From Minisyncoccota bacterium (lineage in GTDB: Bacteria; Patescibacteriota; Minisyncoccia; Phycocordibacterales; XYD1-FULL-46-19), in assembly GCA_041657405.1 (NCBI GenBank), contig JBBABX010000001.1, forward strand, positions 12,152-76,151: DNA of 64,000 nt, read 5' to 3'. The translations under genes were made by a program, and so were the position numbers. Below are positions 24,878-26,372 of this stretch, piece after piece; the stretch's first letter is position 1, and each line of letters starts with the position of its first letter. The notes under the pieces are model-generated. The model was given only the letters and a program-made list of their open reading frames with translations. It ran no database searches and was not told the DNA's origin.

Positions 24878-26372
24878 TTGAAATAAATCCACGACCAGCT
24901 TCCGCTAGCCGTGCCTTGTTACGACTTAACCCTTGTTACCGAACTTGCCTTAGGGCCGCCGAAGCGGCATTTTGGGCATTCCCGGCTCCCCTGGCTTGAC
25001 GGGCGGTGAGTACAAGGCTCGAGAACGTATTCACCGCAGTATAGCTGACCTGCGATTACTAGCGATTCCAGCTTCATGAGGTCGAGTTGCAGACCTCAAT
25101 CCGAACTGAGGCCACCTTTAAAGATTAGCTCCATCTTACGATATTGCGACTCTCTGTAGTGACCATTGTATTATGTGTGTAGCCCAAGGCGTCGAGGGAC
25201 ATGCTGATTTGGCGTCATCCTCGCTTCCTCCCTGCTGAGCAGGGCAGTCTCGTCTGACACTTGTAACAGACGATAAGGGTTGCGTTCGTTACCCCACTTA
25301 AGGGAACAATTCAAACCACGAACTGACGACAACCATGCATCACCTGTCCAATTGTCCTTGTGAGAGGGACATGGTTTCCCAAGTCTTTCAATTGGATGTC
25401 TAACCTTGGTGAGGTTCTTCGTTTAGCGTCGAATTAAACCACATAATCCACCGCTTGTGCGAGCCCCCGTCTATTCTTTTGAGTTTTAGCCTTGCGGCCG
25501 TACTTCCCAGGCGGTTCTCTTAACGCGTTAGCTGTGCCTCTCAGAGGGTCGATACTCCGAAAAGCTAGAGAACATCGTTTAGGGCGTGGACTACCGGGGT
25601 ATCTAATCCCGTTCGCTCCCCACGCTTTCGTGCTTGAGTGTCAGATAGGCGCCAGTCTATTGCCTTCGCTTTTGGTGTTCCCCATGATATCAACGGATTT
25701 CACCCCTACACCATGAGTTCCATAGACCTCTCACCTTCTCTAGTTCTGCCGTTTCCTCCGCATCTTCCCGGTTGGGCCGGGAGTTTTAACAAAGGACTAA
25801 TCAGAACCACCGACGCACTCTTTACGCCCAGTAATTCCGGGTAACGCTTGGGGCACTCGTTTTACCGCTGCTGCTGGCACGAGTTTTGCAGCCCCTTATT
25901 CATGAGGTACCGTCATATGATTCAACATCACTTCTTCCCTCATAAAAGATGTTTACGCTCCTAAGAACTTCATCCATCACGCGGCGTCGCTCCGTCAGGC
26001 TTTCGCCCATTGCGGAAGATTCTCGACTGCAGCCACCCGTAGGTGTATGGGCCGTGTCTCAGTCCCATCGGTGGGGGCCAGGCTCTCACCTCCCCTAGAC
26101 GTCATTGCCTTGGTAGGCTATTACCCTACCAACTAGCTGATATCCCGCAGGCTCTTTCTCAAGCGATAAATCTTTACCCCGAAGGGACTATCGAGTATTA
26201 TCTCGCCTTTCGACGAGTTATCCCCGACTTGAGAGTAGATTCCCACGTGTTACTACCTCGTTCGCCATGCCACACTCCAAACACGAAAATTCATGTTCGC
26301 AGTGTGGCATTCGACTTGCATGCCTTATCCACGCCGCCAGCGTTCACCCTGAGCCAAGATCAAACTCTAAGT
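24878..26372 (-). rRNA. rrs: 16S ribosomal RNA (~1.5 kb) with a non-canonical 3' terminus.
   Basis: The 5' end is the reverse complement of AGAGTTTGATCTTGGCTCAG at 26349..26368. Conserved blocks include GTGCCAGCAGCCGCGGTAA and AAGTCGTAACAAGG. The 3' end reads ...GCTGGTCGTGGATTTATTTCAA instead of ...GGATCACCTCCTT. Confidence 0.9.

Follow-up and report, generated by a model that had tools for sequence, protein, structure and literature searches.

Probable ancient anti-Shine-Dalgarno loss from the 16S rRNA of a Paceibacterota lineage

The 64-kb stretch of DNA considered here (hereafter the window; positions 12,152 to 76,151 of contig JBBABX010000001.1 from the Minisyncoccota assembly GCA_041657405.1) carries one 16S rRNA gene only, and the subject of this study is the 3' end of that gene, where the anti-Shine-Dalgarno (aSD) sequence CCUCC is expected. 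The Rfam model of the bacterial small subunit rRNA (RF00177) matches the gene with 1373.4 bits against a gathering score of 50, covering model positions 1-1533 without truncation. Helix 45 can be read straight from the sequence as CACGGCUAGC-GGAA-GCUGGUCGUG, with ten nested pairs, and its GGAA loop corresponds to the site of two dimethyl-adenosines in other bacteria. Helices 44 and 45 are intact, and since this also holds for the decoding-site stretch AAGUCGUAACAAGG and the loop of helix 45, the gene is not degraded. A residue-level covariance model (CM) alignment of the 3' part retains the GGAU at 24890..24887 (minus strand) with posterior probability '*', after which UUAUUUCAAA occurs where CACCUCCUU is expected and where the model consensus reads cACCUCCUUu. 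The canonical tail of RF00177 is missing from an otherwise normal molecule, which remains a 16S rRNA with a variant tail. The initial annotation had described a 16S 3' end without CCUCC in which helix 45 and the GGAU are kept, and the RF00177 alignment that it had asked for bears this out at the coordinates it gave. Its further remark that no CCUCC follows within 200 nt also holds, the first one on this strand being found at 24653..24649, 233 nt past the GGAU. The features of the locus are collected in Table 1.

Table 1. Features of the 16S rRNA locus and of the other rRNA and tRNA genes considered, in window coordinates
Feature	Position	Strand	Basis or remark
16S rRNA gene, full length	24877..26375	minus	RF00177 covariance match
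Helix 45, CACGGCUAGCGGAAGCUGGUCGUG, intact	24890..24913	minus	CM alignment, posterior probability '*'
13-nt 3' tail GAUUUAUUUCAAA in place of canonical GAUCACCUCCUUA; no CCUCC	24877..24889	minus	CM alignment
Mini-hairpin UUCA-AAU-UGAA, tail end and trailer start	24872..24882	minus	same columns as the canonical CUCC...GGAG hairpin
Structured 3' trailer, four stable hairpins	24715..24871	minus	between 16S end and processing stem
Pre-16S processing stem, trailer arm GGAAACGGAACAGAAGAAAAGAUAAUAU	24687..24714	minus	complementary to leader arm
Pre-16S processing stem, leader arm	26446..26473	minus	complementary to trailer arm
Terminator-like hairpin AAAAACACCU-CCUGAAAAAA-AGGUGUUUUU, then U-rich run	24631..24660	minus	10-bp perfect inverted repeat, dG -9.7 kcal/mol
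Promoter-like TTGACT-16-TATAAT, upstream of the 16S leader	26672..26699	minus	11/12 consensus positions; putative function
tRNA-Ile(GAU)	23669..23743	minus	ARAGORN and Rfam
5S rRNA	36359..36464	minus	about 10 kb upstream of 16S
23S rRNA	36503..39672	minus	about 10 kb upstream of 16S

The extent of the loss was assessed with a search pattern for 16S 3' ends (GTCGTAACAAGG-N6-TAGCGGAAGCTG, verified on the window), which returned 120 metagenomic loci; two loci from genome collections (L001 and L002), both without an aSD, were added to the comparison. Among the loci with enough downstream sequence, 70 carry a canonical tail and 52 do not, and CCUCC is absent from every sampled locus that shares the helix 45 type of the window (CACGG[CG]). 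The closest full-length relatives, with 78-85 % 16S identity (L069, L001, L051, L056, L075, L121, L095 and L067), are all devoid of the aSD, and about 20 metagenomic 16S genes from unrelated samples have tails homologous to that of the window. In a neighbour-joining tree, the window falls inside a clade composed of aSD-less sequences only, adjoining two sequences with canonical tails (L060 and L096), and a second aSD-less clade, which resembles the candidate phyla radiation (CPR), occurs in the same tree; this tree is rough, with long branches caused by insertions in several 16S genes, and was used for the immediate clade of the window only. The aSD-less clade, together with the lack of the sequence in all close relatives, shows the loss to be old and lineage-wide, and more than one such event has probably taken place in this section of the tree.

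Other tails in the same collection have also been altered. Partly decayed forms have been detected (GGAUCACCUUCUUUCU in L111, GGAUCACCUCAUUU in L011, and GGAUCAUCUCCUUU, GGAUCACUACAUUUCU, GGAACACCUAAUUU and GGAAACAACUCCUUUCU in L030, L117, L089 and L059, respectively), which suggests that erosion of the aSD is ongoing in several lineages. A second family of aSD-less tails (L013, L062, L119, L046, L007, L100, L018, L053 and L002) has kept the GAUCA word, with A/U runs in the place of CCUCC that are often palindromic, such as GGAUCAUUUUUUUUAAAAAU and GGAUCAAUUAAAU. Among the close relatives, L001 stands on a 260-kb RefSeq contig (NZ_JAXHLU010000017.1) from a metagenome-assembled genome (MAG) labelled 'Fodinibius sp.'. 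Its 16S is 82 % identical to that of the window over 1483 nt, ends near 6567 with the tail GGAUAUAUUUAAU and falls in the aSD-less CPR-like clade, so that the contig looks mis-binned or the MAG mislabelled.

The tails of the window's clade reveal how the replacement may have arisen. Twenty of them align without gaps, with a consensus of GGA-W-UAWUUC (GAWUAWUUC) followed by a short palindrome. In an ungapped alignment to the canonical tail, U10, C11 and often C12 are retained, the canonical GAUCACCUCC corresponding to GAUUAAUUCC (or UUCA) in the relatives and to GAUUUAUUUCA in the window, and the GAUCA word is altered to GAUUA, GAAUA or GAUUU. The palindrome reads UUCAA-A-UUGAA in the window, L067 and L092, UUCAA-U-UUGAA in L069, L039 and others, UUCCAAUUGGAA in L028, L051 and others, UCCAAAUUGGA in L078, UUC-AAGA-GAA in L008 and L107, and CUC-AAA-GAG in L041. 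A mini-hairpin at the tail/trailer junction can be formed in 21 of 21 clade members, with arm variants UUCC/GGAA, UCCA/UGGA and CUC/GAG and arms that change together at three positions. Its mean stem of 4.0 bp, compared to 2.87 +/- 0.40 bp in shuffles, gives modest support, the stems being short and the sequences related; the pairs were counted by script, as MAFFT set the 3' arms in differing registers.

A comparable arrangement is found in the canonical genes: of 67 distinct tails, 60 have GGGAG, AGGAG or a related word 3-9 nt past the CCUCC, so that the beginning of the trailer is paired with the aSD. The two arrangements match column by column, GGAUCAC-CUCC-UUUCUA-GGGAG being set against GGAUUAA-UUCC-AAUU-GGAA. 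On the simplest reading, the new tail would be homologous to the canonical one, having diverged from it through a handful of substitutions (C to U, C to A). Changes in the tail appear to have been matched in the trailer arm, with the hairpin retained and the identity of the aSD lost. That this small hairpin was seemingly kept while its sequence drifted suggests that selection acted on the maturation of the 3' end and not on the binding of mRNA.

The flanks of the gene are strongly structured. The fold of 24610..24935 reaches -97.3 kcal/mol (z = -4.7), with no shuffle equally stable, and an inverted repeat of 26 nt with 96 % complementarity joins 26473..26448 to 24712..24687. When extended, this processing stem measures 28 nt with a duplex dG of -34.6 kcal/mol, against at most 19 nt for shuffled leaders. 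A leader/trailer stem of 27-33 nt occurs in all five aSD-less loci for which both flanks are available (the window and four others), closing 62-175 nt past helix 45 and enclosing no CCUCC in any of them.

This anatomy bears on one alternative, according to which an intervening sequence of about 233 nt separates the GGAU from a working CACCUCCU, so that its excision or splicing would restore the aSD. The strand of the 16S gene does hold an exact CACCUCCU at 24655..24648, separated from the GGAU by 233 nt, where base composition predicts about 0.001 occurrences per 300 nt. The stretch in between is highly structured, and insertions and introns are known from CPR rRNA genes. Nonetheless, the CCUCC at 24653..24649 is located 3' of the trailer arm and outside the processing stem, so that CACCUCCU lies beyond the portion of the precursor that becomes 16S rRNA, and cleavage in the 28-nt stem would cut it off from the 16S. 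The 8-mer constitutes the 5' arm and loop of the terminator-like hairpin, itself 3' of the processing stem and followed by the U run, and the predicted fold of the spacer consists of local hairpins without a helix linking the GGAU to CACCUCCU. A permissive Rfam scan of the spacer (E up to 10) returned no intron model and only terminator-shaped chance matches, and the would-be 3' junction lacks the G that a group I intron would need. In related aSD-less 16S genes, CCUCC within 500 nt downstream is sporadic, being found in four loci at differing distances and not as a recurrent feature; the tail type is moreover old, and a relic in the spacer would not last. The processing stem, the terminator hairpin and the comparison with relatives have together led to CACCUCCU being discarded as part of the rRNA, and an intervening sequence is regarded as very improbable. 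The unusual 3' processing or insertion that the initial annotation had offered as a way of hiding the aSD was rejected on the same grounds: a CCUCC is present downstream, as it had foreseen for this case, but outside the stem. The sub-threshold Rfam matches in this region (rimP leader, STnc370, Phe leader and others) all fall on the terminator-shaped hairpin on the plus strand and have been attributed to chance.

An error of assembly, or a chimera formed at the edge of the conserved rRNA region, could in principle also produce an odd 3' end. Short-read contigs tend to break in the 16S gene (L123 and L124 end before it, L125 begins inside it), and the gene adjoins a block of unusual GC content. 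Two independent assemblies speak against such an artefact, the product of the small gene just 3' of the 16S being encoded identically on the ENA MEGAHIT contig ERZ27247350 (L125) and in Logan SRR18595299 (L126). The former spans about 390 nt of the 16S end, the tail, the full trailer and the start of the downstream genes, the latter begins in helix 45 and spans the tail and trailer, and both are 100 % identical to the window. Considering also the related tails from some 20 unrelated samples, the assembly artefact listed among the initial possibilities was dismissed, and its probability is taken as negligible.

The absence of an aSD is accompanied by a scarcity of Shine-Dalgarno (SD) motifs. 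Start codons were placed for 53 genes of the window and an SD-like motif was sought in the 20 nt before each start; it is absent in 48 of the 53, and the leaders are about 80 % A/U. The duplex energy of the canonical tail with the -20..-2 regions is -2.20 kcal/mol, which is weaker than in control regions further upstream (-3.12) or inside genes (-3.65), and across the 53 genes of the window neither an SD motif nor a motif complementary to the tail is enriched before starts. These data also bear on the proposal that the new tail serves as an alternative aSD pairing with an A/U-rich SD-like motif, comparable to the 'binding without a conserved core' class of a 2024 survey. Such a role would fit the conservation of GAWUAWUUC in the clade, and A/U-rich leaders always allow some pairing. 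The energy of the observed tail at -20..-2 is, however, no better than that of the controls (-1.73 kcal/mol, compared to -1.96 further upstream, -2.07 inside genes and -1.87 in shuffles), and the 4-mers enriched before starts (TATA, TAAT) are words of the -10 box and not complements of the tail. An alternative aSD is accordingly considered highly unlikely.

The enrichment of -10 words has a marked positional component. An exact TATAAT stands 5-11 nt before nine starts, where 0.43 would be expected from its density at -12..-60 (P = 9e-10), the gaps being 6, 6, 6, 7, 7, 9, 9, 10 and 11 nt. The TATAAT boxes that had been pointed out close to the start codons of murC, secD and ftsK are among the features recovered, at 6, 9 and 6 nt, respectively. 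From a -10 box whose end lies 6-7 nt before the AUG, transcripts would be initiated at the start codon or immediately beside it, and this geometry indicates that leaderless mRNAs are probably produced in the window organism. Many other genes in the window overlap or abut their upstream neighbour, so that translational coupling would be possible. In related loci, where starts were taken crudely as the first ATG, -10-like boxes precede 21 % of open reading frames (ORFs) compared to 7 % in a control window, and this enrichment is present in both aSD-less and canonical loci. Overlapping TATAAT boxes directly before the start codon have also been observed for an IS200-like Y1 transposase domain protein (47739..48428, minus).

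A few genes do carry strong AGGAGG motifs, which the initial annotation had set against the loss of the aSD and had ascribed to two GC-rich paralogs, a zinc-ribbon gene and a small ORF. The motif was confirmed 5-7 nt before the ATG in one paralog (16636..15947), in the zinc-ribbon ORF (24535..24320) and in the small ORF at 21473..21643; the second paralog (19687..18965) shows no more than AGGAG, 16 nt away, and AGGA, 10 nt away. Overall, three instances of AGGAGG at 4-10 nt from an ATG were found against 1.5 expected by chance. The leader common to homologs of the paralogs in three other genomes is GAAAGGAAnCUGACC-AUG, and the AAAGGAGG of the window paralog is a variant of a purine-rich leader specific to this family rather than a conserved SD. 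The apparent paradox is weak, given a count near chance, the restriction to one GC-rich block and the family-specific leader of the paralog. About 100 nt beyond CACCUCCU lies AAGGAGGU, the leader of the zinc-ribbon ORF. As a weaker addition to the proposals made below, the released CACCUCCU hairpin could act in cis or in trans on the few AGGAGG-bearing neighbours.

The block in question, 15900..24600, has a GC content of 0.42-0.46, compared to about 0.34-0.36 elsewhere in the window; it adjoins the 16S gene, includes the tRNA-Ile gene and contains, besides murC, murD and the paralogs, genes for an NlpC/P60 protein and a DUF4015 protein; each of the five SD-like leaders is found in it. The block may have been acquired or be a mosaic. 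The paralogs (15947..16636 and 18965..19687, minus) are 68 % identical to each other, with a GC content at third codon positions (GC3) of 0.65-0.71 against about 0.28 for other genes of the window. At least 726 proteins with 57-75 % identity belong to their family; the named ones all come from Patescibacteria MAGs, and one further copy, the third, is present in the MAG of the window. Homologs in three other genomes (L127, L128 and L130) show a GC3 of 0.74-0.77 whatever the GC content of the host. Reverse transcriptase, HigB, restriction-modification and serine recombinase genes have been found as neighbours of the family. Searches of PHROGs and Pfam gave no match for the SD-bearing small ORFs or the paralogs. 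At the border of the block, a 583-aa protein (13907..15658, minus) without a Pfam match strongly resembles phrog_5156, a phage family (E = 3e-54), and weakly matches a terminase-like P-loop.

The arrangement of the rRNA genes is unusual. The 23S and 5S genes lie about 10 kb upstream of the 16S, and the interval is filled with protein genes (FtsW/RodA, glycosyltransferases, sugar transferases, epimerase, FolD, PAP2 and SecDF). The tRNA-Ile(GAU) gene, the usual tRNA of the 16S-23S spacer, is found 1.1 kb 3' of the 16S with no 23S after it, and two small ORFs lie in between, namely the zinc-ribbon ORF and one at 24191..23883 preceded by a promoter-like site at 24261..24233. With 3170 nt against a 2925-position model, the 23S gene would contain insertions amounting to about 245 nt.

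It is conceivable that a second rRNA operon with a canonical aSD (ending GGAUCACCUCCU) exists elsewhere in the genome, and that the gene in the window is a paralog in decay or with a specialised role. The view is limited to 64 kb, linkage of the rRNA genes is already broken, with rearrangement, and AGGAGG precedes a few genes; there is also a precedent in Alteromonas, where two 16S types with different aSDs have been reported (PMC6107228). This 16S gene is nevertheless of full length, with intact helices 44 and 45 and a score of 1373 bits. All related 16S genes recovered from independent samples lack the aSD, the majority of the window genes are devoid of SD motifs, and AGGAGG occurs at a frequency near chance. 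CPR genomes usually have a single rRNA copy. A second, canonical operon therefore seems quite improbable.

Of the four explanations put forward initially, the one that has been supported is the first, in which the aSD has truly been lost and initiation is leaderless or SD-independent; this support comes from the CM alignment, the relatives, the SD-poor genes and the geometry of the TATAAT boxes. It is very probable that the aSD has been lost from this Paceibacterota 16S rRNA in an ancient and lineage-wide event, and that initiation is SD-independent and probably largely leaderless. Several observations weigh against this interpretation. The coincidence of an exact CACCUCCU is striking, and its assignment to a terminator stem, made from the anatomy of the locus and its absence in relatives, does not truly explain it. 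SD-like motifs are found in five small or hypothetical genes near the 16S, all at 15.9-24.5 kb, and SD-like 5-mers amount to 4.0 % in aSD-less loci compared to 9.8 % in canonical ones, a weakly discriminating difference given the crude 'first ATG' starts. Leaderless initiation is deduced from promoter geometry, the mature 3' end of the 16S has been placed from sequence, and a further 16S copy may lie beyond the 64 kb visible.

Taking these points into account, the following model of aSD loss can be proposed. The gene would encode a working 16S rRNA from which the aSD was lost via point substitutions, in a member of Candidatus Paceibacterota (Parcubacteria/OD1, CPR), the taxon under which NCBI names the proteins of the window, and the ribosomes of this organism would be unable to select starts by SD-aSD pairing. 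Start codons would instead be chosen through leaderless mRNAs for the first genes of operons, with a -10 box 6-10 nt before the start codon, through unstructured leaders with about 80 % A/U, and through coupling at overlapping or closely spaced genes. The pre-rRNA would be produced conventionally, from a promoter, with the long leader/trailer stem as a substrate of RNase III and an intrinsic terminator.

A further constraint on the tail may have been relaxed through Era, a protein that binds GAUCA and CCUCC just past helix 45 (PMC10582724). Era is absent from most CPR classes, including Paceibacteria, and RNase III is retained in the CPR (PMC12641178). The loss of Era would have lifted a second constraint on the tail; the change of GAUCA in the window's clade fits such a relaxation, and a link between the two events may be proposed. 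A bolder proposal would see in GAWUAWUUC and the co-varying mini-hairpin a conserved, lineage-specific element of Paceibacteria, which replaces the GAUCA-CCUCC/Era role in 3'-end maturation or at the platform in a whole class of bacteria without SD-aSD pairing and with largely leaderless mRNAs; this proposal is speculative and rather unlikely.

Loss of the aSD removes the textbook mode of bacterial start-site selection, and has been known from Flavobacteriia, Mycoplasma, insect endosymbionts and five CPR table entries. The present case adds a Paceibacterota genome and, in the sampled metagenomes, a deep clade whose full-length members go down to about 78 % identity in 16S, as well as a second, CPR-like aSD-less clade. 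In these genomes, gene prediction that relies on scoring SD motifs will place starts wrongly, and annotation of the 16S 3' end with CCUCC as a landmark fails. Gene expression in such organisms, or reconstitution of their ribosomes, must allow for SD-independent and probably leaderless initiation. In the CPR, the decay of the tail and the loss of Era seem to be linked.

The window has an rpsF-ssb-rpsR operon (58177..59426, minus) for bS6 and bS18, two ribosomal proteins that in other bacteria adjoin the 3' tail of the 16S on the platform of the 30S subunit. The bS6 is long (175 aa), bS18 comprises 69 aa (58386..58177), and no bS21 was seen in the window. These proteins are relevant to a comparison with Bacteroidia such as Flavobacterium johnsoniae (PMC7797042, PMC9976891, PMC13000453), which likewise have no SD motifs and A-rich unstructured leaders. 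In Bacteroidia, however, bS21, bS18 and bS6 sequester an aSD that still exists, and a regulatory SD persists at rpsU. Such a mechanism cannot apply to the window organism, as the aSD sequence itself is gone.

With regard to leaderless initiation, Mycobacterium, Streptomyces, Deinococcus and archaea share with the window a -10-type box fixed 6-10 nt before the start, from which transcripts would begin at the AUG. The bacteria of this group have kept a canonical aSD and use SD motifs for internal genes, whereas the window has no aSD and its leaderless starts are predicted from sequence. Mammalian mitochondria, with leaderless mRNAs, have a 12S rRNA in which helix 45 is kept and the aSD is missing (PMC10582724). 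The ribosome is that of an organelle, an Era homologue still binds the helix 45 region, and the parallel is no more than an analogy.

The closest parallels are found among 16S rRNAs that have themselves lost the aSD. Amin et al. (2018; PMC6107228) found CCUCCU to be missing in 128 taxa, most of them Bacteroidetes, Mycoplasma or Carsonella, and showed that SD motifs are absent there as well. In Flavobacteriia (Chryseobacterium, Elizabethkingia, Riemerella, Blattabacterium), Mycoplasma and the endosymbionts Carsonella and Hodgkinia, as far as they are described in that source (Lim et al., 2012, via PMC6107228), helix 45 is kept with a 13-nt tail without CCUCC, genes lack SD motifs and the variant is common to related species, as is the case here. 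These groups belong to unrelated phyla, which points to independent losses, the endosymbionts are extremely genome-reduced, and the tail sequences are other than that of the window. The window 16S shows the traits of this class, which includes class iv of PMC10783764, having a recognisable helix 45, no CCUCC in the next 13-15 nt and a variant common to its relatives, by which a sequencing error is ruled out.

In the literature searched, no dedicated study on leaderless initiation or aSD loss across the CPR/Patescibacteria was found. In a survey of 2024 in PLoS One (PMC10783764), five CPR genomes appear, as table entries only: Wolfebacteria GW2, Ca. Campbellbacteria, Ca. Peribacter riflensis and SR1 RAAC1/Aalborg are listed as SD-scarce and without CCUCC. 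These genomes belong to the same radiation as the window, with Wolfebacteria and Campbellbacteria in the same Parcubacteria/Paceibacteria group, and they resemble it in a tail without CCUCC and in the few percent of genes with SD-like pairing. The window differs in representing another Paceibacterota genome, accompanied by about 20 or more metagenomic 16S genes that form a deep clade. Beyond that survey, with which the comparison was made by description, the point-mutational descent of the tail, the retained hairpin, the anatomy of the processing stem and the leaderless promoter geometry have been added here. The loss of the aSD is already known, including in the CPR, and the case of the window is real but not new in kind; what may be new is the breadth of the loss in metagenomes, the seemingly point-mutational tail with its kept hairpin and the strong -10-to-AUG geometry.

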